A stretch of 64,000 bases of DNA from positions 744,001 to 808,000 of the forward strand of contig QPGO01000004.1 of assembly GCA_008632985.1 (NCBI GenBank), read 5' to 3'. The position numbers were made by a program, and so were the translations under genes. The DNA comes from Psammoneis japonica (taxonomy: Eukaryota). A model generated the notes under the pieces. It had not been told where the DNA came from. It saw nothing but the letters and a program-made list of their open reading frames with translations, and ran no database searches. This document shows, piece after piece, positions 1 to 61,967 of the stretch (position 1 is its first letter; every line of letters begins with the position of its first letter).

Positions 1-442
1 GGGGGTTGAGAGTGGGGGCAAAGCAGCGGCAGAAGACAGCACATGATGGGCAGAGTTGAGAGCGGCGGCAGAGGGTTGTTCCAGGATGAAAGAGAAAGCT
101 TGAAGCACTGGGGGAGAGAAAGTGAGTCACCGGAAGGAAGGGGGTAACTCCATGGGTGGCAAAATGGAAGGAGTGAAGAAGGGAAACAAGGAAGGAGGGG
201 GTGCAGTGGCGGAAGGATCAAAGACGAATCCATCCAATCAAAATCGATGACACGATCCAGATGTAGAATCCTACGGCCCATCCAAGTATGAATAAGGCAA
301 GCGTGAAGCGCTCGAACAGAAAATACCGGCACCAGCATCATCACCATCACACACCACCCACCCACTCCTGCAAAGAGGGTGTCGAAGCCATACGGTAAGG
401 GCCTTGGTAACGTTTGATTTTTCGGTAGGAGAAGGTGGTCGC

Positions 443-2757
443 ATGCATAGCGTAGGTTCTTCTCTGAAAATGAGCCAAACGAAGAATAATTCATTTGATT
501 ACGATGAATCGCTAGTTTCGATATGCGCGTCCTCCAGCTTGGCTTCGTTTGTCGCGGATACATCGAACTCGGACACGAGCGATACGGGAAACTATGCATG
601 CCAAAAGCTGTTGCAACAGCATGCGTCGCACTATGGAAGGCCCCTTGAAAAGAGTGATTTGCTTATAGAATACGATGGAAATGGATACCGAATTAGCTCA
701 AGGATGCAACGCTTTGTCGCCAGCGTGGTTCTTGTTGACCGACACAATCGGAATCCCCATCAGCACAGGATTTGCCTGAATCAGTTTTCCGACCTTGAAC
801 AAGACGACCTTCCTGTTTCCAATGGCGAAAATATTGCCGCATTTGAATCTTTGTGGAGTGATAATTTCGGCGAGGCTGAACGAAGACTTTTTGACAACCC
901 GACAACATCTTTTGTTCGTCTGCAGGACAAGAAATCTATCGTGAATGCTGCAGCAGCAATGAAATTGCTATCGAGTGACGACATTTCAATGGATCCCGGC
1001 AATGATCTGAGTGGGGTGACAGCTAAAAATTCCGGCAAATACCCTACGCTGAGGAACGCGGACTTGGATGTAAGCGACTATTCCAAGTACACCCAAGACG
1101 TAAAGTACGATGAAGATACCGACGTGACTCCCATCAAGGATACTTTTGACAGATACCTGAACTGGGCAACTTCTGATAACCCCGACGGAGTGTCCATTGT
1201 GCACCCCGTTATGGATCAGGTAAGTCTAGATTTTATGGTGCCCCCAATTTGGGAAAATCAAATCACTCACCCTCCATGTGTGCATTCGAACGAAAGGGTA
1301 AATGCGGGAGTTGCTGGGCTTTTGCTGCTACAGGTACGCTAGAAGCGAGCGCCGCTCGCCGGGCTGCGTTCCAAGCCTTTACAGATGTAACGAAGGAACA
1401 ATCAACGCAGGACGGTGCCCAAGGTGTGAACAAGAGTGCGCTAGTTTTGGCGCAAAAGTCAGAGAAAGAAACATTGGCGGTGGCGAACTTATCCGTGCAG
1501 GAGCTTGTCGACTGTGATACCGCTGTGGACCAGGGCTGTACTGGTGGAAATCCGCTGCTAGCATTTTATTTTATTCATCGTTTTGGACTGGTAAGTATTC
1601 AGTATCATGTCTGTCATGTATTTTTCGGATCTATCATTCATTCTGCTCTTCTTTCGTTGGTAGACATCGTGGGCGAACTACCCATACATGGGGGTTCAAG
1701 GAAAGTGTCTGATACATCGAGTTGCGGAGCCAATTGCTACGGTACAATCATGGGGTATCTTAACCCCGAACCATGAAGGTGAGTTACTGTTCGGTAGCAT
1801 AATAGACCTTGCGGTTCACGACTGGGCTTAGATTACGTTCGGCTCAATGAATTGCAATTCACATTGTGATTTACGTATCTTTACAGCGAATATGGAATTG
1901 GTACTTCGATATATTGGACCGATTGCAGTGGGAATAAATGGTGCTGATCCTACCTTCCTTGCTTATGAAGGTGGTGTCTTTGACAGCGAAGACTGCAGCC
2001 AAGCTGCCAATCACGCGCTCCTGATTGTTGGGATTGGCGAAGAAACAAATGAAGTGGATGGATCTGTGGTGAGCTTTCTTCATCTGGCAATGTTCAGATT
2101 GAATTCGTAAGAGAGGTTGGCTTTAACAGTTTCGTTGTGACTTTGAACAGGTGAAATACTGGATAGCTAGGAACACATGGGGCGTTGGATGGGGAGAGGA
2201 TGGATATATACGAATGAAGAGAGGAACCGGAGAGAAAGGGCAAGCCGGAGTCTGTGGCTTGGCGAAGAATCCAAGTGTTGCCTTAGGTGGGACATTGCTG
2301 GAAAGCACGGATTTTGAAACAAACACGCGAGTGGAGAAGTATGTGGAGAGAAGTCGTTCGCAGCAAATGCCGAACAGCGAGCTTAGGTCCCCTTGTAATG
2401 ACATTGACTTGGGCAAATTCCGGAATTTCCGCATAGAATGGTAAGATATCGACTAACATGTTGTACTATCTTCTTCTTGCCAGAAAGCTCACATGTGCTT
2501 TCCGCGTGCTCAGCATGATACAGTATCACAGGGCGACGATGATGGCCATCGCCAGCATTGTCACGGTGGTGCTTTTTGTGATTTGGCCATTGTCGACTGA
2601 ATGTCGTGCTCAACGGCGACGCATGCGCCGGATGAACCAGCGATTGCAAGAACCCATGTCACAGAGCCCGGAGGAGGCGTCACTGCTGGTTGCGGCAGAT
2701 GTTGAGACGGTATCTTATGGAGCCGACGTGCAAGCTTCCGAATCGATGTCGCAATGA
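443..2757 (+). CDS. Papain-family (C1A) cysteine protease with I29-like propeptide and C-terminal transmembrane helix; 6 exons
   Basis: Spliced motifs: [11 protein letters not shown] (catalytic Cys), [22 protein letters not shown] (His), [15 protein letters not shown] (Asn); LNQFSDL propeptide motif. GT-AG introns at 1220-1296, 1591-1663, 1779-1886, 2069-2150, 2441-2513. Start codon uncertain (443 or 470). Confidence 0.9.
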
Positions 2758-2972
2758 AGGCTAGCGCCGCCCGTACCTCGAAAGCCGTGTCCAGTAGCGG
2801 AAAATCTTTGGAAAAAGATCAATACATTGAGCTTTCCCGTGCTGAAGGAGGACGTCATTGTCGGTATTCGAGGCTAACAACCGACAGAAGGCGGCATCAT
2901 TGGCACAGCCAAATCGTTTCTTTCTAAAAAAGAGGGTTAGCTTATGTTAGCAGCATTAAAGTAGTAAGCAGT

Positions 2973-4199
2973 TCACACTTCGCTAGTCCGTTTAACTTTT
3001 TCTGCATCGTCCTCATGTTCTTCAGCATTTTCCATCACGGTCGTAGTCCAGCTCTTTCTACTATCCATAGCTTCATTAGCTAACCCTACAGCAAACACCA
3101 AACGTAAGATTCAGATTCTCTGTGAATGTATCTCGAAACTCAGAAAACAACTTACCGTCAGCGATTTTATTATCTTCACGGTAAACGTGTTGAAAGGATA
3201 CGACGGCATTCGCGGTTTTCTGCAAATCCCCGACTAACGACATTGCCTGTTCATACAACGGAATGAGTTTTTTATTCTTGCACTTGTATATCCCGTTGAG
3301 TTGCTTAATCAATAAATCTGAGTCGCCATACACTTTCACATGCACCGATTGCCTTCTCGCTGCGGGATCAGTTTGTGAAGCACTTGTTTGGAAGTACTCT
3401 CGTACAATGGACTGGGCGTGATTCAAACCACATAGTAATCCTTCATACTCAGCAACATTATTCGTCGCTCTAGTCCCTAGGTACTTTCGAATATGTATCT
3501 TTCGTTCTTTGTCATTCCCTCTTTCATCTTCTTGGCCTCTTTCTTTCACCGCCACCTCTGCTCCCGACCCAGCCAAGCCTAACGGACAAAAGTTGCAGCA
3601 ATTCACTATGTTTAGATCAAAAGCATAATCTTTACAGCTCTCTTCAAAGCACGTACCGGGATTTCCTCGAGAACCGCCGTCAAAGTGGATGACAATGGAT
3701 AACCCGCAATTCTCGTCTGTCGAGTGTGTCTTGGGAACTGTGTGCCTATTAGCTGTGGGGTTCTTTGTTTTCAATTGCGGTGGGCGCGCCCTTTGCCATT
3801 CAGCCCCGGTTGCTGTTCCTCCACCGATAAATTGCTGCGCCTCCGACAGCGTTTTGAACCCCTTGAATCTAGCATTCGTGAATCCTTTTACCTGCAATGC
3901 CGAAGCAGAAATTGATGTGTCAGGGTGTCCCAGAATAAGACCGTTTCGTTGTTGTTGGTTGATGCAGAGATCGTTTCATCCAGAATAAAGCTACAAGGAA
4001 ATCCTAGTAACTTATCTACGGCAAGATCCGCGACCAACAGCCCAGCAAAGCGTACTGAACCTCCCGTCTTGCGCCCCCGGGCAATAGTCGCATCGAAATC
4101 CTGAAAACATACCTGAGCTTCACACTCTTTCCAAGACGTGAAAATGCCGGTTCTTCTACCGCGTGACACAGCATAGAACTTCTTTGTAGTCTTGGGCAT
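2973..4199 (-). CDS. Ribonuclease H1: N-terminal hybrid-binding (viroplasmin-like) domain plus archaeal/plant-type RNase HI domain; 4 exons
   Basis: KFYAVSRGRRTGIFTSWKECEAQ|VKGFTNARFKGF; FDGGSRGNPG, TNNVAEYEGL, GDSDLLIKQLNG, HVYREDNKIAD|GLANEAMD. Introns 3892-4112, 3579-3656, 3086-3155. An upstream in-frame ATG near 4280 is possible. Confidence 0.9.
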
Positions 4200-4591
4200 T
4201 GCAGTGAGTACGAGCGGATATCTTTTGATGGGTTGTAGCGGACACCAGGCGCCCCATATGAGCAAACCCTTTAGCATCATGGCATGGTCTGCGATCTGCT
4301 CGTCTGCTCGTGATTCGTGATGCCCTCCGGCTCTTGATGATTTGAAAGAATGACGGAGGACAGACGCACGCATCTGCGTGATGAACGTACCGCCCGGTAT
4401 GTACTGTAGGGCCCTACCGTATGGTACGCGCGCGGGAGAAAGGTGGCGGGAAAATAGAAGATCGTATCCAGAATCAATCCGTATCCAGACTTGCATGCAT
4501 CGCATCAGCGCTCACTCACCTGCGGGTCTTGTGACCTGTGACTTCACCCCCCGGGTCTCTACTGGACTTACAATTAACTGTATTGACAACC

Positions 4592-34900: not shown

Positions 34901-37689
34901 CGTCGGGCAGCTCACCGAAACAAAGGTGACACCAATGATACTGGTTGTTCGCGGTGACGTAATAGTAGCTATTCCTTCGTATTCTTTTGGACGGGCAATT
35001 AAGGCCATTGCAGTAAAAGACAGGGGGCTCAAAGAGAAGCTTCTCGCAGCCGCAAAGAAGGCAGGCTTCGCCATTCTTTCTCTTCGCATCTTCTTCCATG
35101 TTCAACTGTCGAATAAGCTGCTCATAGTCTGCCTGAAACTTGGCCTTCATTTCCTTCGCCATGTTGTGCACGACAGAGCCTTCTGGGTTGTACAACATGG
35201 CGTTATCGAATGTAAGAAGAACGTGCGCTTCGAAGTCGTCGATTGAATGATAACAACCATTCTCGAGTCGCTTCTTGATCGTCCCGAGATCCATTGGTTT
35301 CTTGATAACTTCGAAATAGTCGTGCAATCCAAGCTCGACAGGATCCACGGGACTATTGAACACCCATCCATGCTGGTGGGACTGAAGTACCTTCAACACT
35401 TCGAGACATTTAGTTTTGAGCTTTGCCGGTGCAAGTTGCAAACCTTTGTTTAAAGAAGCAATGTGCGTCTCGATCTGCTGAATAGTGAAGCAATTGATGA
35501 GAGTATGATCTTCTTGCGGTTTCGGTCCCGAATGCTTCGGCATAATTACTTGTCCATTCGAAAAAGCAAGTCCAGGCGCTCCCGGTCTTGCCACACCCGG
35601 CGCCGCGCCAGGTGCTGCGCTCTGCGGGTGACTGTATACGTAACCGGCTTTCACGTTTGGGTTCAACGTTGCGCCCTTAGGAGCAACCCCGTGCGATGAT
35701 GGCTGAGGAAGAGGCTGCTGATTCTGAACCACAGCTCCGCCTTGATAAGCTGGTACCTGTCCAGCTACTGCAACAGGAACAGAAGAATTCGTTTTCCTTC
35801 GTTTTGAAGCTGGTAGTTCGGCCCCGGCGGGTATAGCACCCGATTGAGTTGCACCTGGCTGAGTCAACGCCCCAGATGCAACTGCCCCGCGTTGCTTCGC
35901 TGCGTCGGTACTTGCCATTTGTGTCTGTTGGACAGCTTGTTGATGCCGCTGCTTAAGAGCTTGCATCTGCTTCTGTTTCTCGTGACTCCGATGGATCGCC
36001 TCTCTCACGGGGCCGCAAACAGGACATCTAACGTCCTTGCACCTATGGTAATGGCTCAGAACGTACCTAGAACTCACGCAATGCGGAACGAGGCATTTTT
36101 GGTCCTTGCATTCTGCGATGTGCTTCCACAGTCGTTTCATACCAGCACAGTGCGGCGTAACAGGGCATCTGCCGTCCTCGTGCTGACACTTCGCCGCATG
36201 TCGCAATAAGAGTAGACGTTGCTGCTGGTGTCGCAACACCTGCTGGCGATCAGAAACATGCCGAGCTGCGTTTCCGGCTTGAGCACCATTTGCCGTAGAC
36301 GGAGCTTGACCTGGAGCTGCTGATGGTGCAGCGGCAATGGCTGTCGCGGGCGCGGCAGCCGGCACGCCTGCCTGCTGAGGTGTGACTTGTTGCTGGTAAT
36401 TTACATTTTGTGCATTCTGCGTTGTGCTGCTGGATAAGGTGCTACTCGCCGGTGCCGAACTTGATCCCCCCATAATTGGATTTATATCTGACATCGTCAC
36501 AATCTGTCGCTGTGGTGGCTGCGTTGGCACTTGCGCTTGATTCTGTGGCTGCTGCAAGGTCACCTGCTGAGGTTGCTGAATAGGCTGCTGCATCGATACA
36601 GCAGGAGCAGCACTAACCTGCTGTGCTTGCAGCGCCTGAGCTTGTACCGTCTGAGCCTGAGGCTTCAGCGGCTGTTGTCGTTGCTGTTGCTGAGGTTGCT
36701 GTTGCGCCTGATACTGTTGTTGCTGCTGTTGCGTTGGTTGATACTGCGCTTGCTGCTGTTGAGCCTGGTACTGTTGCTGCTTTTGTTGCTGGGCAAGCTG
36801 TGCCTGCTGCTGCATCTTCTTCGTCTTCATACCGATATTCACCGCGAGCTGTTGAAGTCGCTGTTTCAAAGTAGATGCATCATTGTATTCATTAAACGAT
36901 TTTGCTGATCGGTAGAGAGACTCCTCTAATCGTTTCGCCATCTGTGGTAGCTTCTTCAACCATTCTTGCGGCGCGTTGGGTTTGCGCTGCTGCAAAAGGT
37001 GCACACTATGGGCGAAAAGGTCATAAGAGTTTCACTCCTATCGAAACAAGGGTAACGAGGCAAGTACAATCAGGTGCTTACATTTTCGCAATCATTTTCC
37101 GTCTTTCCTGCACGTCTTTGTCACTCTGCCACCCGCCGTTCAGTCCCTGATGCGGAAAGTGCTGCTGTTGTTGAGGTGCAGCTTGAGATGGAGCTTGCAT
37201 CGCTTGCTGTTGTATATTACCATTGGGTCGATGAAGCTGTTGTGGCTGCTGTGCCTGAGGTTGATGAGGATGCTGTGGCTGCGGCTGGATACCTTGCTGC
37301 TGCGGTTGCTGCATCTGCGGCTGTTGCTGCTGCAACTGCATCTGCTGCTGGTACTGTACATGCTGAGCCTGCTGTGCTTGCTGCGCCTGTTGAACCTGCT
37401 GTTGTTGTTGATGTTGTTGTTGCTGCTGCTGCTGCAAATTTACCGGCTGAGAAGTCGTAGCTGGGGTAGGAGCAGGAGTGGCTGCTGGCATTTGAGGTGC
37501 TGCAGGCAGTATCGACTGTTGTTGCTGTACACTCGCAGGAGCTGGTACATTTCCCGTAGTCACTGTCATTGGAATCCCTGCATTGTTCGTTGTAGGAGCC
37601 GGAGCGGGCACAATTGATGGACCTGCGGATATCTGGTTATTCGGAGCGCTTGCTGGAGGCAGTGGCGGCGGCGCACTTGGACTTTGCAT
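31939..37689 (-). CDS. CBP/p300-type (KAT3) histone acetyltransferase; 3 exons
   Basis: Gln-rich N-terminus, Med15/KIX-like domain, TAZ ([10 protein letters not shown]), bromodomain ([24 protein letters not shown]), PHD, HAT ([24 protein letters not shown]), ZZ, TAZ2. Introns 37006-37081 and 34465-34550. Confidence 0.96.
36670..37435 (-). repeat. Coding CAG/CAA (polyGln) low-complexity tracts within CBP/p300
   Basis: Runs of tgc/tgt triplets on the + strand at ~36670-36815 and ~37200-37435. Confidence 0.85.
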
Positions 37690-39074
37690 ACTTCCCAAAA
37701 TCAAATATATAATCAGTTCTTCGAAACTGCGGCGAGACGAGTTACAAGTCAATAATCGTTCCCACTTTCGTAAGAGGATCCCCTATCCCCTATTTGAGCG
37801 AGTAGACTGTGCAAGACGACACAGAGAAGCAGAAAAGGGTGATATTAGAGCTGATCGCAACAACATACCGTTGCATGCAACAAATCGGCAGCCGAAAGAC
37901 AATCGAATATTTTTCGAACAAATAATATGAAAATTGGACAGTTGAATATAAAAATATAAATAGGAAGTGCGACGAGTCCAGCATACCAAAACATTTCATT
38001 TCCACCAACTATCCCGAGCCATGGCAGATTTCTTGCAACCAATAATAATCAGGGAGACGTAGCAATCTCTATTTCGCAATAATTAGGCGCAAACAAAGAG
38101 AAAAAACTCGATTTTTGCACGAACAAAGGTACAGAAATAAATTCCGTGCGCCATTCAACCGTGTCAGCGAAGAACAAGTCGAAGTACGAGCCATCACGTA
38201 GAAATGTACGTGATGATGCTCGATCGATGAGAATCGGATTTTCAACCCCATTGCGGCGAGCATCATGACTTCCACAGCTGTAACGTGATGAATGCCATCG
38301 AGAACGCACCTTGAATCGTCGACGCAATGGTACACTGTCCGGAAATAATGTCGGCGGCGATGAACGCGTGTCGTGCGGAGGCTTCGCCGTAGCGTTAGTA
38401 CTGGCTTCTACAGCGCGTCTCTCTCGGCTCCGAGCCACACACGACACGACAAAAAAAAGAGGTGAATGGAATGCATGGTGCATGCTACTGGAGAGATACG
38501 TATATTTTTACATACGTAATATTCGACCGTAAGTCGCTAGTATGTCAGATTTGAGCGAGATACAGTGCTAAACTGCTGCCGCCGAGGACCGAGGACCAAA
38601 AGAAAGAGGGTGATGCATTCATCTGGAAGAAGTGAGTGTACATGTAAGTGTGCTATGTAAGAACCAACGCAGATGAATCGCAACCAGTGAAGATGAGCAA
38701 TACCCTTCGTCTTGTAACGGACAAGCTGCGGCGAAACTACAAAATGACAAAGATGAACGACAGCAAAGAAGACAAGGATATTACTATTTGAAAATGCAGT
38801 ATCTCACCCTGAACTGTGGTCTTGCGTCTTATAACTTACAGGACGCGGAATCGCTCACGTTTTCCCCTCTTACGCTCAGTGCGGTAGACCCACTTCAGGC
38901 TGTTGCCAGGATGTCTGTGAATCCAGAATTCAACATGGTCTGCGGTCTGCGGTCGATACAGTACATGCATGGATTTTCACAAGATAGCGCGCCCAAATCA
39001 TTGAATTTGGAATTTTCTGGCAACTTGAACATTGACGCATTCGTAAGATGCACATAGGAAGCGAGAGAGATTTT

Positions 39075-49632: not shown

Positions 49633-51984
49633 TCATTTCCCCGAGAAACCCATCTGGCGTTTGTACGCCAACTTTTCCGCGGCCGTTGCTTGATCTTTCG
49701 TCCAGTTCCCCGAACTCGTTCGCTTCGAGTATTTCGATTTCTTTTGATCAAAAATCGCCTCCAAGTTGCAGGTATGAACTTCGCCAAATATTTCATCCGG
49801 ATCCAGTCTGGGTTTGCCAAAGTACTGATTTTCCAAGGCTTTGACAAGGTTCGATCTTTGAGCCCACATTGGAACCTTCAATAGAGTTGAAATGAAAAGA
49901 ACAAGGATGAGATGAAGCCAAGTAACAGAGACAAACGTAGGATTCTATGGCTCAGTAGTTAAACCGTATCTTCTGTTTCGTACCTTCTTCTTTTGCTTAG
50001 CTTCATCGTAGCTGTCTTCGTCGCTCTCACTGTCGCTTTCCTCACGATCAGATATTTCATACGTGTCCATTGGAGACCTTATTTCGTCTTTATCTGTCTC
50101 TTGTGTAACCTTCGTTGATTTTACTACATCGATTTTGCTCTCTATCACTCTCTTGGGCTGACTACCACTTGTTGTTGGTGCATGAGATTTGATCGCGGCC
50201 GCTTGTGCGTTCTTATGCGACGTACTGGTTTGGATTTGAGCGATGCTAGACGGAAATTCCGTCTTTTTGTTTTCAATTTCGGTGTTCTTCTGCTGCGACA
50301 TCGCCGCAGTCTTCTCTCGCATCTGTGCCGCAAGCTGTTTCTTTCGCTTATCCGCTTCTGTTTCGACAGATGATATCGTAGCTTTGAGAACTAGTTTTGA
50401 GACGGACGGTATGTTCTTTGCGCTACCGTTCACATCTTTCGTTGCCATAGCCTTACTCTACAAAAGACAAAAGGACACGTTAAGACCTATCATATATGAC
50501 GATACATCTGGGTTAATACAATCAAGCGTCACTCACCTTGCCTCTCATCTCAGCTAATCTGGCTTTCCAAATTTCGCTGTATTCCTTCGCCTTCTTTGTT
50601 GTTGTTTCCCCGGATGATTTGTTTGCACCATTAGCCAACGATACTGCGGGATTTGATAGCATCCTTACTCCTTTTTCGTCGCTACTTCTTTCATCGTTTG
50701 TCTCGGCGCTTTCCCTATTAAGTCGAAGAATAGCAATCACAAATCATTTAGCTTGCTCGGTTTTTCCACGCAGACCGGAGACAACGAGAAGCACGTTGCT
50801 GACTTACCTCGAATTCACTGCATTCTCGGTGCCTCCACCGGAAGAACGATCCTTTTTGCTTGTTTCGTCCAGGCCCTTGACGTTTGTCTCATTTGGCCTT
50901 CCGACGGATTTGAGGGAGGAACCAACAGCCGTAGAGCTGGACGACACCTGTACCTTGTTGAGAGCGCTTTTCTCATGCAACAGAGCTTCGGACTTCCCTT
51001 CCTTTGCAATGCTATTCGAGTGCTCAGTCTTGTTTTCGTGGGCACGACCTTTTTGATTGTCACCGTCACGACATGCAGAGGCAGCACTGCACGATGACTC
51101 GACTTTGGAGGTGGAGATAGCACAGGAAGCGCTTTCATTCGATGTGACGCCCATATCCTCTTGCTTCGACTCTGAATCTACCTCCATTTCTGAGACAGCA
51201 CCCCGGGATGCGTCGCTTTCACTAGTGTCTTTCATTTCGACGTCAACGGCATTATCACTTGCCGGAGGACCGCTTCTCGACTTGGACTGTAACAATCCAC
51301 TGGAAATAGGCGATATCTTTCCGGTATCTTTCTTCGGCTTCGAGACAATAGCTTGAGGAGACATTGATCTTTTTCGTTTGTTTTCTCGGATGGTACTCTC
51401 TTTGTCTGCGATGGGTTCATCCCGGGTAGATCGTTCCTTCTCGAGAGCTTCCAACAAACGATTTCGTAAGATTCTCTTTATACCCGTCGTACTTAGACCT
51501 CGCGACTTCAATTCCCGTTTCAATTCCTCAACTTTCATAGCCATTACTACCAGCTCTTTTTCGGTAGAGACCTTTGGTACTTCATTGTGGACTGCCAGAG
51601 TAGCGCTTACCTTGTTGGTGGCACGGCACGACTTGTCGGATATAATCAAGTTGGGGTTGGTGTTTTCATTCTGCGTACTACCCGTCTTCACCGCATTTTT
51701 TGGGATGCTCTCCTCTTTTGTCACATCTCCGAACTTCATTTTACATAGCTTTGAAAATCAGAACACGCAAGAAAATACAGAAGTTAGTCAGAAGAGGGTC
51801 GGGAGTCGAGAAACGAGATATGCTGCAAAAACATTCTTACCTGAAACGTATCGCTCAACCATTTGCTAGTCACATCATAGTGAGCCTCTAAGGAAATGGT
51901 TGTGTCGTCTCGCTTCTCCTCGACACCCTCCAGTACGCCCTTGATACACTCCACCGTAGCTATCATCGCCCTCTGCTTCGTCAT
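49633..51984 (-). CDS. INCENP: INCENP-like chromosomal passenger protein with SAP domain and C-terminal IN-box; multi-exon
   Basis: YEISDREESDSE..KK|VPMWAQ..L..AL..Q....DPDEIFG...CNLEAIF....Y.KRTSSGNW (Aurora-B-binding IN-box); SAP motif MKVEELKRELKSRGLSTTGIK..L..RL. Confidence 0.82.
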
Positions 51985-54900
51985 GGCTTCGGATCTGTAT
52001 CAATGAGTCGTCAACGTATGCAAAACCGGCTTGTAAACACCAACGTTGCCGTCTCTTCTAAAAGTTTGCCTACAGTACAGTCGGTATCCCTACTACGGTA
52101 ATCGTCGTGGTGTTGCTGCAATGTGGTCGCTACTCCGCACGGTCACATCACTGCTGGTTGTTCACGAAAAACCGTTCCACATCAAAATAATGTGGCCGTT
52201 GCGTTTTATCCAAACAATGAAGTTATACCCCGCTTAATAAATATATATGTCGTGTTTGTATTAAAATCCCAACGAATATTTTGCTTATAATATCCTCGTA
52301 ACATTAGAAATGTTCAATTTATTGGATATACATTCTTAATGTAAGAATATATGATTTATAATCGTCTGTATGACGTACGTGAAGAAGACGCGCAGCCACA
52401 GGCTCAGCCTGTGGCGCAGCAGCGCGTACCGGCACTGCCACCAGCAGCAGCAGGTGCTAGTTTCCCCAACCAACAAAGCCGCATGGAAGATGTGGCAGCT
52501 CTCTCCTCTCCCAAGGGATCATCCCTTGCCTCTCCTCTCAACTCTAGCAAGAGAGAGCAAATGACAAGATCCATTGTCACAGCACCTCAAAGAATGATGA
52601 CATCCAGCACTCAAGGAGAAGAACAAACACGCGCCAATGCTCAACAGCCAGCACCCACCAGTGTGAAGCCCCCTCTGTCTCCTTGCCCCACACAGCTCTC
52701 CTGGGACACACCCAAAGCAACTCAAATTCCCAACCAGGAGGTGTGTGCACACAGAAGAGCCATGGTCTTCCAAGTGTCTTGACACTCTGGATTCTCCCAA
52801 CAAAGCTGCTGCTTTCTTTCTTGGGCTGCCCCTCCTTTTCTTCTTCTTCTTGATGGTGGCCTCCCTGACCCACTTCACAAATCCTCTCAAATTTGCTTCT
52901 TCTTGTTGCACATTTCTCTCATGCCATCACCTCAAGCAATGACAACTCCAGCCACAGCCAAACCTTCTTTTTTTTGGTCATCAAGTTGCCACATCCCTCT
53001 CAATTCTGCTCAGCATGCTCAAAGCTTTGCCTTGTGCACAATCTTTTGTGCACTTGCTTTTAGCTGCTGCTTCTGAGTCAAGAGTGTGCAAGCAAAGTGT
53101 GGTGGGGTGATGGCACTCACTGAGTGCACACTCTTGCTGTTTGGTGAAATCATGCTGGGGTCAAGTGGTGTTGGCCATCAATGTCCAATTGTTGGGTCGT
53201 CACATGGAAGCTCAAGCAAAACAACCCAACAAAAACACAATCATTCTTGGAAGCTTTAAAGTCAAAAACAACACTCTCTCAAGCACAGCAAGAGAAGCAG
53301 GTGGAGAAGCAGACAAACCAAAATGTTGTGCAAAGAGTGGAGTGGTGCCCCAGCACCACATTTGGGCCATGCTGTCACAATCTGTGAGAGCTTGTTCATG
53401 TGACAGTGAGTGTCATCAAACTTCATGTCCATCATGGATCTCCATTGCTTTGTGCCAGTGCCAAGGAAGCATGCGCAGCCCTGAGATTCTTGCAGCTTTG
53501 ACTCAGAGGCATTTCCAGAGGAGAGTGCTGGAGTGTTGCAAATTTGCATCATCCAGAGGGTCAGAAAAATGCAGAGTGATTTTTAAATCACCCATGATTC
53601 AAGAAGCAAATGGGTGAGCTTGCTTGACTTTAAAACTGGTCTCATGACATTGGCAGCAGTGCTTTTGCAACATGCACATGCTCATTGTCTGTCAGTGTGC
53701 AGGGCACACAAAACACATCCAAGGCACATCATTCATGAGTGAGTGTGCCATTGCCCCACAAGCCTCTCCATGAAAACCTCCTTCTTGTGATCATTTGGGT
53801 TTTGACATTTTTTACTTCTTTCACCTCTCCTCTTTTTCATGGCTGCACCTGTGTGTCATTTGGAGCATTTTACATTGCAGCCACAGCTGATTTGACATCT
53901 GTGCTCCTTCTCTTGGAAGCTGCAGCATGCAATGAAATGAGTCACCCACTCAGGAGTCTAGAAAGCAAGTGAGATGATCATGTGTGTTCTGCTTTTTTTA
54001 AAGCCAATGACTCCCATCTTCTGAGGCAAACACAGTGACTGACACAAAGCAGACCATGACTCAACTTTTTCTGGAAAACGTTGTGGCTCTTGTTCAGAAT
54101 TCTTGCTCTCTTGTTCAGAATTGTGTGTTCTCAACAAGCCCCAAACAATTGTCAACAAAGAGGGAGTTTCATTGTCATTTCAACCTTCCAAGTGGGATTT
54201 AACAGCCAATGTAAATCAGTCGCATGATGCACACATTCTTGTCAATTTTTCATGTCCAATCGTTTTAACATCATTTTTGCATCTGTCCACCATGAAACTG
54301 ACCTTCTAAGTGGGAAATGACAGTCAATGAAACTTGTCACTTGCATTTGTTTCTGTCTTGACAACCGTGTGTTCACAACAACTTTCTGACATTGTTCATT
54401 TCTGACAACAATGATTTTCAATTGTCTTGTTGACCCAATTGCACATTGGCTGTGTGCTGCTTGTCATCTGATTTGCAAATGTTCTGTTTTGTCATTTCTG
54501 CACTGCACACCAAATGATGCCCCCTTTTTCCTGTTCTTGTTTTTCTCCTGCATTCCACCAGCTCCTGTTGCCCTTCTCAGTTCCCACACAATGGGTGTGA
54601 TGTTTTGGTCCTTGTGTCCTCCCTTGCAACCACTCTTGCTCTCTTTGCCATTGTTGTCTACACCAGGCAACAACATCATCCTGCAATGATCTGTCTCAGG
54701 TTCCTTCTGTTTGGCAGGCCAAAGCATTGCCTGCAACAAGAGAAAACTTTGTGCCAATGATCAGGTTTTGTGCATGTCTTGTGTTTCTTACAATCTTGTC
54801 TCATGCGCTGGTGCTTCTGCTCACCTTTGTGCCCTTCCCCATTTCTGTGTGCAAAGATGTGCGCAAGTGACAGTCATTTGCATTGTGCACCCAATCTCCA

Positions 54901-55321
54901 TGCATTCGCCACTTGTTTTTCCACCTTGTGCTGTCCTGCATTTTGTTCAGTCCTGTCCGCAATGCTGCTGCCTGTCCCCACTGCTCTCATTGTCAGACAT
55001 TGGATGCAACTTGAGTTTGCATTTTTTTGTCTTGTGAGGGAGTGACAATTTGTGTTTTTGACCAAAATGTGAGCCTGACCGTCAGTTGATTCCTGTTGGC
55101 ATCTCTTTTCAGCAACAATTTGTTTTAAAAATCAACACAATGGTTTGAATGATTTGAAACCACCTTGATGAATCATTCAGTCATCAATGTCACACATGCA
55201 TTCAACAAGTTTGATTTTGTCACATTGGTGTGTTCTTGCTGAGATTGAAATTTTCACACTCATGCTGCACACTCCCAGCTCCGGGACCTCAATCAACACC
55301 TTTTTGCCATTTGGTGTGCTC

Positions 55322-56780
55322 AAAAATTGCTGCTGCCAACAAGACAATCGCCTCTGTTGAGAAAGCTCAGAAACAGACCCTTCATTCCAGTGAAATGACA
55401 ACTTTAGAGACCCACCTTGTAAAAGAAGTGGACAACTTGAAGGTGGGTCTTGCTCTTCCATTCTCTCTTGGTTTTCTGTCCAAACAAGAGACACAGGGAA
55501 CACCATGAATTTCCATTCAGTGACTCCCTGTCCTGGTTGTCGTTGGCTCCCCTGGGACACAATGGAGGCACCCAAGGCCATCCAAAGACAACTGGGCACT
55601 TGCACTGTCACATGGCACAGAAAGCTCCCTTGTCTCATCTGCGCGACAGCTTGGTGCACTGCTGGGCCAAACCCAGCCATGATGTCAGAGAGACAAGGTG
55701 CTGCATTGACACAAGACAAGGCCTTTCCTCCTTTGCTTCCCAACCATTGTTGTTCAATCAACACCTCTTTGCCATTTGGCCTTTTTGCCATTGGGTGTGT
55801 TCACTGACCATGCCGCCAAAAAAAGGAAGAAGCAGAACCCACAAGGTGCTGGCCACAACAGTGCCAGTCACACCAGCACCATCGGCGGCCATGGTGGAGG
55901 TGGTTGCCATGATGGAGGTGGTGCTTGTGGTGTTCAAGTGCAAGGTCAAGGTCCTCCCAGGCAGCCCAGGCAAGGCTCCAGGACAAGCCCTTGGTGACCT
56001 CAAGGCTCTTTGTCTGGGTGCTGGAGCTGCTGTTCCACCGGCCAGCGACCCAGGTTCTGCTGCCACTGCTGCAGCCTCTGCCAATGAAAAAAGCCAACGC
56101 CTTTGACAATGTGTCTGCTGACAGCTGCTCCTCTGCAGTTCAACAAGAAGATCTCGTGGTGTGATGAAGTCCCTTCCTGCAAAACTCCCTTGCTGCTCAG
56201 AGCCTCCAAGCACCATGCTGCCTGCAGCATCAACCCAAAAGAAATGTCTGGCAATGAATGCAGAATGTGGCTGTTGTTTTGCTGGCAGATGCACGGCCTT
56301 TTTGCAAAAACCAAAACAAAAAGATGTGCAAGCAGCTGCAGCAAAAGTGCAAAGCCTGCAATGCAAAAATTGCCACTTTGCTAAAAACAAAATCGCCTCT
56401 CTCCAGAAAGCTCAGAAACAGACCCTTCATGCCAGTGAAATGACAACTTTGGAGACCAACCTTGCAAAGAAAGTGAGCAACTTGAATTTGGGTCATGCTC
56501 TTCTGTTCTCTCTCTTGGTTTTCTGTCCAAGCAAGAGACAGGGAACACAATGAATTTCCATTCACTGACTCCCTGCCCTGGTTTTTGTTGGCTCCCCTGG
56601 GACACAATGGAGGCACCCAAGGCCATCCAAAGACAACTGAGCACTTGCACTGTCACACAGCAAAGAAAGCTCTCTTGTCTCTGCAGGTGAGGTGGCTGGG
56701 CCAAAGCAAGCCAATTGCATCTTTGGATAGACAAGGGGCTGCCTTGGCCCAAGACCAGGCTTTTCCTTCTCAACCATTGT
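55322..56780 (+). repeat. Dispersed direct repeat of ~430 bp (55322-55750 and 56365-56780)
   Basis: Shared AGAAAGCTCAGAAACAGACCCTTCAT.CCAGTGAAATGACAACTTT and GGCTCCCCTGGGACACAATGGAGGCACCCAAGGCCATCCAAAGACAACTG. Confidence 0.88.
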
Positions 56781-58190
56781 TGTTCTTGCCTCCTCAGGGA
56801 CCCAATGAAGTCCTTGTGCCCATCCCAAGACAACTGAGTGGTTGTGCTGTCACACAGATGGCTCCCTTGTCTTTCAAGCAAGTTGGTGGTTCTTGGCTGG
56901 GCCAAAGCCAGTCATGTCAGAGAGACAAGGTGCTGCATTGACACAAGACAAGGCCTTTTCTTCCCACCCATTGTTGTTGGCTGTTTGCTCCTCTGGGATC
57001 CAACAGAGTCACCAAAAGCCATCCCAAGACAACTGAGCACCTGCACTGTTGCACAGATGGTTTTCTTGTCTCTGTGGGTGGGTTGGCTGTGCCAAACCCC
57101 AGTCATGTCAGAGAGACAAGGTCCTGCATTGACACAAGACAAGGCCTTTGCTTCCCAACAAATGTTGTTGTTGGCTCCTCTGGGATCCAATGGAGTTGCC
57201 AAAAGCCATCCCAAGACAACTGAGCACTTGCACTGTTTCGCAGATGGTTTTCTTGTCTCTGCGGGTGGGCGGGTGGCTGGGCCAAGCCCAGCCATGTCAG
57301 AGAGACAAGGTGCTGCATTGACACAATACAAGGCCTTTGCTTCCCAGCCATGGTTGTTGTTGGCTCCTCTGGGATCCAACAGAGGCAACAAAAGCCACAC
57401 CAAGACAACTGAGCACTTGCACTGTTGCACAGATGGTTCCCTTTTGTTTCCTTTCATGCAAATTGGCGGTTCTTGGCTGGGCCAAAGCCAGTCATGTTAG
57501 AGAGACAAGGTGCTACATTGACACAAGAAAAGGCATTTGCTTCCAAGCCATTGTTGTTGTTGGCTTCTCTGGGATCCAATGGAGTCACCAAAAGCCACGC
57601 CAAGACAACTGAGCACTTGCACTGTTGCACAGATGGTTCCCTTGTCTTTCGTGCAAATTGGTGGTTCTTGGCTGGGCCAAAGCCAGTCATGTCAGAGAGA
57701 CAAGGTGCTGCATTCACACAAGACAAGGCCTTTTCTTCCCAACTGTTGTTGTTGTTGGCTCCTCTGGGATCCAATGGAGTCACCAAAAGCCATCCCCCAA
57801 GACAACTGAGCACTTGCACTGTCACACAGATGGTTTTCTTGTCTCTGTGGGTGGGGTGGCTGGGCCAAACCCAGTTGTGTCAGAGAGACAAAGGGCTGCA
57901 TTGACACAAGACAAGGCCTTTGGCTGCTTCCCAACCATTGTTGTCATTGCATCCTCTGTGACCCAATGGAGTCATCCAATGCCATCCCAAGACAATGGAG
58001 CACTTGCGCTGTCACACAGATGGTTTTCTTGTTTCTGCAGGTTGGCTGGCTGGGCCAAAGCCAGTCATGTCAGAGAGACAAGGTGCCACATTGACACAAG
58101 ACAAGGCATTTGCTCCCCAACCATGGTTGTCAGCATGTCCCTGGCACTCCACTGGAGTCCTCCAATGCCATCCCAAGACAACTGCACACA
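56590..58190 (+). repeat. Tandem array of about 8 diverged ~190-bp units
   Basis: Anchor AGAGAGACAAGGTGCTGCATTGACACAAGACAAGGC at ~56728 (diverged), 56919, 57110, 57299, 57499, 57695, 57882 and 58072; a solo copy at ~55687. Confidence 0.93.
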
Positions 58191-60810
58191 CCTCCTTTGC
58201 CACATCTGCGGGCCTCATGCTTCCACACCTTGTGCAGCTGGGTGTCTTCTTGTTTGTGGAGGAATCATGCAATGGGGCTTCTGTTGCTGCTGCCCAAGAC
58301 AAGGCTTGCAGCTTCCCAAATCAAGAGTGCAAAGATGCCACAATTGGGCCAACCCACTCAACAAACACAGACTGAGTGCATTTGGGGTGCGTGTCATGCA
58401 GGCAGCAACTCCTCAAACCAATGTGCATTTTTGGCAATGATGATGATCTGGCTTGGCATTTGGCAAATGTTTGCTGGGACATGGGGACACCACCACATGC
58501 TCCATTTTGGCTTCTCAAGTGCCGTTGGCCTGTGCATCATGCACCATCCACCCAGCAAGCCTGTTGGATGTGCCAAACTTGTCCAAGCCCAGCCATGTGA
58601 AAGAAAAAGTTGACTAAAAAAAGCACACAAACCCAGCACACAATGTGTGGTGCCAGTGCAAAGAAAGCCAGCATTTCAGCACCAGGAGCAAGTCACAAAA
58701 TGTCAATGTTCTTTGTCATGTTGCATCAACATCTCTTGTCTCACAAACATTTGTTTGGTCATTGCAGCTGTCCTGTTGTCAATCCTTTCCTGCAAATCAT
58801 TTGTTTTGATGTTGTGGGTGAGGTTTGATCAAAAGGATCAACAGCAGAAGGATTTTTGTCATGACAAGAATTGTGTGTTTCAAATGTTGCCATTGCCAAG
58901 CAGTGACACAACACAACTCAAACGCCTCCGCCAAGGACACCCAAATGACAAAAGACATGGAGGAAGAGGTGCAAGCAGGAGACATGGAATGCTCTCAGCT
59001 GTCCCTTTGCCAACAGAGAAGTGTTGAATCAAACAAATGCCACACATGCATTGTCAGAGGTGATGGAAACCAAAGAAGAATCTTTTTGGGATGTTCGCAA
59101 TGCCTGCCCACCGGAGAACAGCAAGGGCAAGGAGCAGTGTAAAAATGGTCAGAGCTGTGACAACTGTGCTGTGACTGGAAGCACTGCCATTTTTTGTCAG
59201 TGTAACAGAGCATTCACCACAGCTCTAGAAAAACCCAGGTTTTCATTTTACAACTCTTGATTCTGAGTTCTTTCTAAAAAAATGCTCTGTGAAGCATTGC
59301 ACCAACATCTTGAAAGGTCATTGCTGCTTGAGCAACTCCTGTGCAGCAAAACAACACCCAACATGCCTGTTGCATTGCATTTTCTTGGATTGGCTGTTTC
59401 TGATCATCATTGAATGGAAATGCTCCAGAAATCATTGCATCCTCAAAAGCAAACACTTTGGACTCCTGTGCTTCACAGCAGCTGTGCTTTTTTCTTCACC
59501 CAACCAAGCAACAGCATGGCAGCACTTCCCACATCCCTTGCAGCAGTGTTCTGCACATGGGGCTAAAACCAAATTTTTCCAATTTGAGGTGCCTCAGAGG
59601 CCAGATGAGATTCTGGACTTGTGAAGTCCCAGAAAAAAGCCACCATGCTGCAGTGCCTCACATGCACAAGGTGAGGATCCATCCACACACCTTGCAAGCT
59701 AGCTGGAAATGCAGTGATGAGAAGCATTGCAGCCTCCACAATCTTGATGTTTGGTTTGATGTTTTTGTGATGAGAAACACATCACTCGAGTGCCTTTCAG
59801 AAACATGTCGCCAAGCTCACTGCCCTTCGCCACAACAGATTGAACTGGCAAACTGCAGCACACAGAGAAAACACTCATGTGAGCCACACAGGCAACTCAA
59901 GCAAAGGCAGAGATCTGACAAATCAAAGGATGAAAACAAATGAAACTGTTCTTAACAAGTGTGTAAAATGTGAACAGAATGAGCCACACAGGTGGCTTAA
60001 AATGAGCAAAAACGATTTGTCTGTTTGTGACTTGATGACTGCTGAGAAACAAAATTGACAATTGTGTGTGTTGAAGATCTGTGGATGCAATCAGCATGCA
60101 TGTGAAAAATTTTAATCATTGACAAGTTGCGCTCTTGTTAAGCATGGAAACATGTTGCAGACGTTGACCACAGACACAGCAACTGAGTGTGCTGTTGTAC
60201 AAGACTCACAGCGACATTTCCAAACTCTGTTTGAGCTCACTTTTCTGATTGAGCTGCAACTGAAATCTCAGCAATGATCACAATTTTCAGAAGACCTCAG
60301 TTGTTGACAGTGTTGGTCATGCTCTTTCAGCACTGCTGTTGCCATTTTTTCTAACCTCGTTCCACACGCCAAGGTGCAGACTCCCTCGCCCAATCACCGC
60401 GCCACTAACGCGCCCATGATTCTACCGTAGATTCGCCAGATGGTTCCTTGACGACTCCTCACTCTCTAGCTAGAGTGTAAACCTACATAATGGTAGATAG
60501 ATGCAGAATGAAGCAAAGGGCAAAATCGTGCCGTTCCAAATGACCTTGTTTTCTGCGGAGAGATCCAAGCAAAAAGAAAGTTCTGGGTATGCTTCAAGGT
60601 GACGGGAGAGCTGCAAATTCAATTCGCATGACGCCATTTCTAGTATTACATTCGACAGCACAGACTTGAGTGCTTGGACCTTAGGTATAGTGTATGAGAT
60701 TACATACTGCTGAAATGAGTTTAGAGCTTATAGCGCACCACGGCAATCACAAAACTAAACTCAACATCCACAACTTCTTTACACTTTCAAAATATACAGG
60801 AAGTCAATGA

Positions 60811-61967
60811 TTAAGCAGCCATTTTGCGGTACGTTGTACGTTCAATGGCGGCTACAACATCCTCAACCTGCGGGAGTGAAGCATTCTCAAGTTCCGTGGC
60901 ATAAGGCATTGGAATATCAGCACCAGTGACGCGCTCCATGGGTGCATCCAAGTAGTTGAATGCGTCCGACTCCATGAGAATTGCAGCAATCTCCGAGCCA
61001 ATCCCGCATTGAGGCCAACCTGTTTCAAGCGACACAACACGTCCGGTTTTCTTGGCGGAGTTGATAATGGTATCACGGTCTATGGGACGGATGGTTCGAA
61101 GATTGATGACCTCGACCGAAACACCTGAGTCGCCATAACCTCCGCTGTCTCCAATGCCAGTCCAACCATCTTTGAAAAAGTAACAACAGTCACATCAGAC
61201 CCTTCCCTCTCAATCTTGGCCTCACCGATCGGAATGACGAAATCACTACTTTGAGCTTCTTCCGACATGGGAAAGCTTACTCCGTACATCAACTCGTGTT
61301 CCAGAATCGCCACGGGATTAGGATCGCGAATAGCGGCCTTCATGAGTCCCTTGGCATCCTCAGACGAGTAAGGAGACAAAACCTTGAGTCCGGGAACAGA
61401 AGAGTACCATGCAGCAAAACACTGAGAGTGCTGTGCACCGGTTCCGGCAGCGTTTCCATTGGGTCCTCGAAAGACAATGGGACAAGCCAAGTCACCAGCA
61501 GACATGTAGTACTGCTTTGCAGCCGAGTTGACAATCTGATCAATGGCCTGCATGGAGAAATTCCAAGTCATGAATTCAACAATGGGCTTCAAATCCTTGA
61601 GAGCAGACCCAATGGCCAAACCGGTAAAACCCATTTCTGTAATGGGTGTGTCAATAACGCGTTTATCACCATATTTCTGGTAGAGGCCCTTTGTGACCTT
61701 GTATGCACCTTGATACTGCGCAACTTCTTCTCCCAGAATGTATACTCCTTCATCTCGCTCCATTTCCTCGTCGATTCCCTGATTAATAGCTTCGCGCACA
61801 GTCAACTCGACTGTGGCCATGCCACGTGAGAAAGTCCTCGATGCCGCTGCGGCCTGCGCAAAGGTTATGTATGCAAATTACAGACACATGAGAAGGGCAC
61901 ACACACAGACACAACATACACGGATTCCCACCATAGAAATACTTCGAAAACTTGCTGGAAGAAACAT
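60811..61967 (-). CDS. PDHB: Mitochondrial pyruvate dehydrogenase E1 beta subunit; 1-nt frameshift at ~61124
   Basis: TVREAIN...[59 protein letters not shown]. Presequence exon [16 protein letters not shown]; a tiny upstream exon from 62052 is possible. Confidence 0.94.

Follow-up and report, generated by a model that had tools for sequence, protein, structure and literature searches.

In the genome of the diatom Psammoneis japonica, a block of 7,911 bp lying between ordinary genes lacks about 89% of the TA and about 89% of the CG dinucleotides expected of it. The block occupies positions 52433-60343 of a 64,000-nucleotide stretch, referred to here as the window (positions 744,001 to 808,000 on the forward strand of contig QPGO01000004.1, assembly GCA_008632985.1), and it was delimited by composition together with maximum-likelihood change-points. 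The explanation favoured here, to which a probability of about three in four is assigned, is that CpG decay of the 5-methylcytosine (5mC) type was joined by a TpA-specific A:T-to-G:C mutator, both acting on a silent domain. An earlier note on this DNA had reported that the region 52400-60400 was nearly free of both dinucleotides; the fitted borders agree closely with that region, and 38 TA and 49 CG remain between them.

Composition and borders of the block

Dinucleotide observed/expected (o/e) ratios were computed per kilobase across the window, and the TA and CG counts expected in the block were derived from the shares of these dinucleotides among pyrimidine-purine (YR) steps outside it. Kilobases between 53001 and 60000 had o/e ratios of 0.04-0.17 for CG and 0.02-0.13 for TA, with TG raised to 1.71-1.96 and CA to 1.45-2.03, and the remaining kilobases of the window, two edge bins excepted, had ratios of 0.72-1.29 for CG and 0.41-0.84 for TA. 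Over the whole block, the 38 surviving TA compare with 329.7 expected (88.5% missing, binomial P 3e-104) and the 49 CG with 441.5 expected (88.9% missing, binomial P 3e-147), corresponding to o/e ratios of 0.07 and 0.11, respectively, with CpA at 1.8. TG (856-857) and CA (914-918) are nearly doubled and the strands are balanced, in keeping with the large excess of both that the earlier note described; its smaller intervals also proved exact, with no CG or TA in 58621-58860 and no TA and three CG in 57001-57300. The longest run of TG and CA without an intervening CG or TA is 110 inside the block and 27 outside, and when (CG+TA)/YR below 0.12 was sought in 300-bp windows, the block was the single segment found in the whole 64 kb.

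The total of YR steps is nearly the same inside the block (0.235 of positions) and outside it (0.240), so that only transitions at the YR steps CG and TA are needed to account for its composition. The missing TA and CG imply about 684 such transitions, or 8.6% of the bases of the block. CpG loss alone is insufficient, as had been argued from inspection of the sequence, and a second change from TA to TG or CA is required. GC content is 0.474 inside the block and 0.448-0.49 outside. A comparison with intergenic background had been proposed as a check, and it separates the two clearly: non-ORF DNA elsewhere in the window, that is, DNA outside open reading frames (ORFs; 17.4 kb), has a TA o/e ratio of 0.73 against 0.07 in the block, and a CG o/e ratio of 1.04.

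The borders were located by a two-change-point maximum-likelihood fit with support intervals of 2 units of log likelihood (lnL). The left border was placed at 52433 (support 52433-52484) and the right border at 60343 (support 60334-60343), giving a sharpness of about 50 bp on the left and about 10 bp on the right, where TA is back at 60352 and CG at 60358. The depletions of TA and of CG have common borders to within tens of bases.

Repeat core and single-copy flanks

Copy number was judged from contigs of three sequencing runs, all made from a single sample; these were the only runs in which this DNA was found, and none of them was listed as RNA. Contigs of the run were assembled from 31-letter words and reach 315 kb. 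Contig records were placed at 80% likeness or more, a level at which 1,557 of them match, and their summed depth is a rough guide rather than a copy number. This depth is about 60 over 51500-53816 and 60437-61400 (60-70 in the bins of 52493-53816, 56-64 in the flanks), and 400-3,500 over 53817-60436. The contigs part ways at 54070 (a loose end with 8 records), and a single-copy contig resumes at 60076, where a contig of 9,510 bp with a depth of 55.9 begins to span 60076-61400; contigs of run X2 covered 60705-61400 and otherwise gave scraps only. The segment from about 54070 to 60090 is one member of a multi-copy family, and the segments on either side of it are single-copy yet equally converted. 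The left part, 52433-54070, has a TA o/e ratio of 0.09 and a CG o/e ratio of 0.06 and gave no Pfam match; the repeat itself, 54071-60090, is non-coding and of unclassified type, with ratios of 0.06 and 0.12 when computed on 54071-60100; and the right tail, 60091-60343, has ratios of 0.15 and 0.28 when computed on 60101-60343. The earlier note held that conversion was specific to repeats, which is not fully supported: roughly 1.9 kb of the converted domain is single-copy in this one set of DNA data. What was struck seems to be a delimited domain and not repeats in themselves.

Within the repeat, a tandem array at 56581-58184 comprises 8.3 copies with a period of about 190-200 bp and 80% matches, and an internal duplicate at 55321-55636 matches 56364-56681 with 87.8% identity in an alignment of 320 columns and is followed by a partial extra array unit. 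The array units fall into two alternating subtypes set apart by an insert of about 12 bases, and their length of 190-200 bp is close to the nucleosome repeat length. Neither a long terminal repeat (LTR) nor a long terminal inverted repeat was found by a repeat search of 51500-61500 and a BLAST search of 52300-60600 against the window, which gave only three arm pairs of 20-23 nt; the same BLAST search found no copy of the block elsewhere in the window.

The plus strand of the block holds 29 TAA and TAG triplets together and 165 TGA, and the near absence of TAA and TAG stops explains why 53 long, false stop-to-stop ORFs of at least 80 amino acids occur in it. None of these 53 ORFs reached the Pfam cut-off, the eight weak matches (E 0.006-0.09) all lying under the curated scores, and the six full-length frames of the block, with stops read as X, matched no protein family; neither set yielded a protein domain of viral or transposon type. 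Blocks of this kind would thus be expected to burden genome annotation with long false ORFs that belong to no family. A 275-aa ORF at 57613-58437 had no homologue among 2,232 candidates, and a 143-aa ORF at the left edge (52351-52782) had no match in 1.84 billion representative proteins. The latter ORF has its ATG in normal DNA, and its frame crosses the left border and continues in converted sequence; it may have arisen by chance or be what is left of a dead gene. Degenerate patterns of the array unit, with YR written at each TG or CA, matched nothing in metagenome contigs or in viral contigs, and no RNA family was detected in the window at gathering scores.

Sequence context of the TA and CG losses

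The TA dinucleotides that survive are not a random sample. Between 52480 and 60380, 29 of 38 stand in TTA or TAA and four more in CTAG, much as the earlier note had observed. TTAA accounts for 11 of the 38 surviving TA in the block against 117 of 2,355 outside (Fisher P 2e-6), and ATAT, ATAA and TTAT together for none of the 38 against 466 of 2,355 (P 6e-4). Relative to YR steps in the same context, survival of TTAA is about 0.9 when the whole outside serves as baseline, and lower with the non-ORF baseline, in which TTAA is commoner (59 in 17.2 kb).

These contexts were described by a model in which the adenine of each strand changes at a rate set by the following (+1) base. This model gave a negative lnL of 1578, compared with 1629 for a flat model with three fewer parameters and 1623 for a model based on the -2 base, and its fitted rates were 3.8 for T, 1.5-1.6 for C, 1.0 for G, and 0-0.03 for A. 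The ranking was kept with the non-ORF baseline (1581 against 1630; rate before A 0.13-0.22) and when the tandem array was dropped along with the duplicate's second copy (1245 against 1292), in which case TTAA makes up 11 of 33 surviving TA (P 5e-7). The product trinucleotides are graded in the same order, with gains per kb of 15.4 for TGT, 12.2 for TGC, 10.1 for TGG, and 4.3 for TGA, and ATA was converted mainly to ACA rather than to ATG. The data, which are compositional, fit an A-to-G change at 5′-TAT > TAC > TAG >> TAA on either strand, under which TTAA would be spared because both of its adenines precede A. This context rule for TpA is new in this analysis.

Loss of CG follows a weaker context rule, TCG > ACG > CCG > GCG (lnL gain about 9-17), with survival lowest after T and highest in GCGC. 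Both strands were struck about equally, site by site. Strand-coordinated runs of TG or of CA, such as a processive single-strand deaminase would leave, were not found in the block (z -2.0, whereas other complementary pairs reach -5 to -15), which in a block so near saturation is weak evidence either way. A single enzyme acting on both TA and CG was also considered and rejected: GA/TC stands at 0.95 in the block against 1.09 in non-ORF DNA outside and AA/TT at 1.26 against 1.13, and this possible hint of TC-to-TT change is too small to be told apart from native composition.

Proposed mechanism and alternative explanations

According to the favoured explanation, the block would have begun as an island between genes, made up of a 6-kb copy of the multi-copy repeat with 1.6 kb and 0.25 kb of adjoining unique DNA, and some 680 transitions would have rewritten this island after it was in place. 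One kind of change would turn CG into TG or CA through deamination of 5-methylcytosine in a CG-methylated domain. The other would turn TA into TG or CA through A:T-to-G:C mutation at TpA only, with the order of preference given above. The enzyme responsible for the second change would be recruited to the silent, methylated chromatin domain as a whole, so that unique flanks would be struck along with the repeat and genes 470-700 bp away would be spared. The expected outcome is that Tyr codons, TA-containing codons for Ile, Leu, and Val, TA-rich signals, and CpG would all be lost for good, so that anything the domain contains would be irreversibly inactivated.

A DNA adenine deaminase of the tRNA-adenosine-deaminase (ADAT2/TadA) type is the leading, though tentative, candidate for the TpA enzyme, at somewhat less than even odds; the substrates of such enzymes, natural ones and mRNAs alike, have U ahead of the edited A. 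In the available text of two reports, mRNA editing by fungal Tad2-Tad3 (ADAT2/3) shows a strong preference for U at position -1 of the edited A (PMC11087585, PMC11156358), and BjADAT2 of amphioxus is described as deaminating both A and C in DNA (PMC10354150). The pattern in the block resembles what is given for this family in that A-to-I change reads as A-to-G, T or U precedes the A, and the preference of BjADAT2 for TCG is paralleled by the faster loss of TCG. A scan of 45 further ORFs of the window gave no domain of the deaminase, methyltransferase, or TET/JBP type.

Several points weigh against this explanation as a whole. No unconverted ancestor or copy of the repeat was found, and the direction of change is proven at no single site. 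The ancestral stand-in of the context model is mostly coding DNA, or else 17 kb of non-ORF DNA, and the model is fitted to only 38 surviving TA. The sole DNA data compared are the contigs of one sample, which is possibly the source of the assembly itself and hence not independent of it. As far as the accessible text goes, the adenine motif of BjADAT2 in E. coli DNA is GAA, with TCG for C, rather than TA (PMC10354150), and fungal mRNA editing is often at UAA as well as UAG (PMC11087585, PMC11156358), whereas TAA is nearly immune in the block.

The first alternative places the TpA change on the thymine: an oxidase of the TET/JBP type would make 5-hydroxymethyluracil or 5-formyluracil at TpA, the modified base would mispair with G, and T-to-C change would follow. 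5-Formyluracil does mispair, and the composition of the block cannot separate A-to-G from T-to-C change at TpA, which is self-complementary. The context rule can likewise be read as ATA > GTA > CTA >> TTA, and the statement that a T following T is immune describes the data equally well. Nothing points to such modification in this organism, and the sole experimental precedent proposes adenine deamination, likewise without proof in the part of the preprint available (10.64898/2026.01.13.699255); the thymine-side route is judged improbable.

Error-prone repair in heterochromatin would connect the loss of TA to the CG-methylated domain and to the common borders. Repeated rounds of excision repair, for example after deamination of 5mC, would be completed by a polymerase of low fidelity that is prone to A-to-G errors at TA. 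Errors of the polymerase-eta type occur at WA motifs. A WA signature should strike AA as well, yet AA/TT is undepleted (the 1.26 against 1.13 given above), and this disfavours repair errors as the source; a saturation of about 89% with TAA nearly spared would also be hard to reach by polymerase slips. This explanation is accordingly held to be more improbable than thymine modification.

Native or inherited composition, in which the family evolved or arrived already lacking TA and CG and the locus itself underwent no conversion, bears directly on whether the block was converted in place. No unconverted copy was found, and the contigs of the family all look converted among the 40 of 1,002 rows listed, which is what native composition would give. 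The depletion nevertheless begins 1.6 kb before the left end of the repeat and extends about 0.25 kb beyond its right end, into single-copy DNA, and in thus overrunning the repeat's own ends it argues against a natively TA- and CG-free family. The YR total, equal to that of normal DNA, is a further point against it, as is the alternation of TG and CA between array units. TG and CA differ at both letters, so that such alternation is expected if ancestral TA or CG was resolved independently in different copies. When eight array units were aligned, TG/CA was the commonest double difference in adjacent columns, found in 18 column pairs against at most six for any other type, and it made up 95 of 475 pairwise double differences; this excess is partly expected from the abundance of TG and CA, and it is supportive rather than decisive. 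A residual TA or CG in one array unit may be aligned with TG or CA in the others, as at one position with six TG, one TA, and one CA, and at another with TG, CG, and CA. In the 320-bp internal duplicate, interchanges among TA, CG, TG, and CA constitute seven of 26 difference events. Among repeat copies in the run, transitions account for 723 of 1,001 variable places, and CA-to-TG doubles occur at 58949/58950 and 59303/59304 among the 40 of 1,002 rows listed. Taken together, the conserved YR total, the TG/CA alternation, and the residual TA and CG opposite TG or CA favour conversion of the block in place, as far as sequence comparison can tell, and native composition is regarded as very unlikely.

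Some differences between the window and the contigs are also of the relevant kind. Right on the left border, at 52428-52445, a run contig departs from the window by TA>TG at 52428 and by CA>TA at 52442 and 52445, and these three are among the five differences listed over 51500-52700. They may be a hint of recent activity at the edge of the domain, and they may be allelic or strain differences. The 12 differences listed in single-copy DNA include five of TA against TG or CA and two of CG against TG or CA. Outside the block, window and contigs differ by TA>TG at 61248 and 61320, both at third codon positions of the E1-beta-like gene described below, and by TG>CG at 60449, and these may likewise be alleles or strain differences.

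A further alternative starts from RNA: the transcript of a retroelement would be hyperedited from A to I, reverse-transcribed, and inserted, the editing enzymes being of a kind that favours U before the edited A. TG and CA are balanced between the strands without strand runs, where a one-strand A-to-G bias would be expected; the unique flanking DNA is converted too; no reverse transcriptase or LTR was found in the block; and CG was lost within the same borders. Strand balance and converted flanks bring this explanation close to refuted. Least probable, to the point of being negligible, is an artefact of sequencing or assembly, for instance through miscalling of modified bases, which is suggested by the fact that both changes exchange pyrimidines at sites that could bear base modifications: the run contigs carry the converted sequence (four differences in 1,465 bp at 52671-54135 and eight in 578 bp at 58822-59399), and miscalls would explain neither a clean choice between TG and CA that depends on context nor the differing states of the repeat units. 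The reads of the run are presumably accurate, given that contig records are as long as 315 kb. This check is not fully independent, since the assembly may have been made from the same run.

Relation to known systems and significance

The closest counterpart to the TpA loss proposed here comes from mutation-accumulation lines of the chlorarachniophyte Bigelowiella natans (Mettrop et al. 2026, bioRxiv 10.64898/2026.01.13.699255). According to the available text of that preprint, two integrated viral regions, of giant-virus and virophage DNA, received 231 of the 302 nuclear point mutations; almost all of these 231 were A-to-G or T-to-C, and all of those were at TpA. The rate was about 1000 times background and was seen in some lines only. 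The B. natans genome was also reported to contain 124 clusters of 1-kb windows poor in TpA and rich in CpA and TpG, with domains of transposable element (TE) type enriched among TpA-poor genes; the regions are mostly silent, and an ADAT2-like adenine deaminase was proposed without proof. A hypermutation signature restricted to TpA has thus been found reported once before, in an unrelated alga, and the signature of the present block is not new in kind.

As far as the preprint's available text allows comparison, the two cases share A:T-to-G:C change at TpA giving TpG or CpA according to strand, recorded as mutations in B. natans and inferred here from composition and paralogues, with no de novo events. 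They also share a discrete region beside normally evolving DNA, here one block in 64 kb. They differ in their hosts, B. natans being a rhizarian and P. japonica a stramenopile diatom, and in their targets, since the block consists of a non-coding repeat and unique flanks with no trace of a viral or TE protein. The block is nearer saturation, with a TA o/e ratio of 0.07 compared with a Rho of 0.45 for the B. natans region of nucleocytoplasmic large DNA virus (NCLDV) origin, and in the block, unlike in B. natans, CpG was lost within the same borders. Wider context is absent from the main text of the preprint in the form available, so the rule TAT > TAC > TAG >> TAA has no counterpart there with which to be compared.

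A more familiar comparison is with repeat-induced point mutation (RIP), which has features in common with the block and runs in the opposite direction. In Neurospora and other ascomycetes, RIP changes C to T, mainly at CpA, and raises TpA and AT content. It is a dinucleotide-specific burst of transitions, tied to repeats and regional in extent, by which repeats are inactivated and unique DNA next to them may be affected as well. The block is similar in showing bounded, dinucleotide-specific transitions that are associated with a repeat and reach unique DNA. It is unlike RIP in that TpA falls (o/e 0.07), CpA rises (1.8), GC content is unchanged, and the TpA-raising C-to-T change that defines RIP is not what is seen; in line with the earlier note's remark that fungal RIP increases TpA, the direction is opposite. 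Duplication triggers RIP, which is also linked to the sexual cycle, and here the core is multi-copy while the single-copy flanks are equally converted.

The CG half of the pattern would be accounted for by 5mC-driven CpG decay, to which the CG o/e ratio of 0.11 and the change of CG to TG or CA correspond; the loss of TpA lies outside that process. In the accessible text of a further report, 5mC in the diatom Phaeodactylum tricornutum is restricted to TEs (PMC12344493, citing Hoguin et al. 2023), and diatoms are named among the groups in which 5mC is reported to co-localise with heterochromatin bearing H3K9me3/H3K27me3 (PMC12344493). A literature search whose coverage left out most subscription journals found no description of TpA loss in diatom repeats.

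If the favoured explanation is true, a targeted A:T-to-G:C mutator of silent DNA would exist in diatoms as well as in Bigelowiella, and it would represent a widespread eukaryotic genome defence whose direction is the reverse of fungal RIP as well as of the GC-to-AT bias usual in mutation. A more speculative extension, considered rather unlikely, is that diatoms and chlorarachniophytes share an old chromatin-guided base-editing defence, in which a DNA deaminase requiring a 5′ T, with the preference TAT > TAC > TAG >> TAA, would be recruited to 5mC-marked silent domains, erase TpA irreversibly, possibly hasten the loss of TCG, and leave borders a few tens of bases wide. The present block offers a clean, isolated example with borders sharp enough for comparison with methylation and chromatin maps, and it shows that unique DNA inside the domain was struck along with the repeat. 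Its concrete specificity, with TAA immune and TAT best, could be used to pick out the enzyme and could be compared with the de novo mutations of B. natans. A natural TA-specific adenine editor of DNA, if it exists, would be of interest to base-editing research.

Neighbouring genes and other features of the window

The window is gene-dense and includes a CBP/p300-type acetyltransferase, a RecQ helicase, a tyrosyl-tRNA synthetase, a thiolase, and other ordinary genes. Among the best 120 hits of the thiolase, those seen with an organism name all come from diatoms (Seminavis, Pseudo-nitzschia, Nitzschia, Cylindrotheca, Eucampia, Chaetoceros, and Epithemia) at 67-72% identity, and the best of the remaining hits reaches 89%. 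The two genes that flank the block are both on the minus strand and both unconverted. To the left, a gene with a SAP domain (50804-51739) has its start about 700 bp from the border, and to the right, the frame of a pyruvate-dehydrogenase E1-beta-like gene (60811-61877; Transket_pyr and Transketolase_C domains) ends at 60811, about 470 bp from the border. Normal DNA separates the block from both genes, upstream of the SAP gene start (about 700 bp) and downstream of the point at which the E1-beta frame ends (about 470 bp). The 566 bp that adjoin the left border (51867-52432) have unusually high ratios of both CG (1.35) and TA (1.08), the opposite of the block; a shared promoter region serving the SAP-domain gene may lie here.

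Two other segments of the window deserve mention. Within the CBP/p300-like gene, 36001-38000 has raised TG (1.5), CA (1.2-1.4), and GC (1.5-1.6) steps with CG and TA near normal, which is guessed to reflect a CAG/GCA-rich coding repeat distinct from the signature of the block. At 3079-4511, two adjoining minus-strand ORFs with RNase H1 N-terminal and RNase H-like (RVT_3) domains, and with normal TA and CG, probably belong to a single RNase H1 gene of the host that an intron interrupts.

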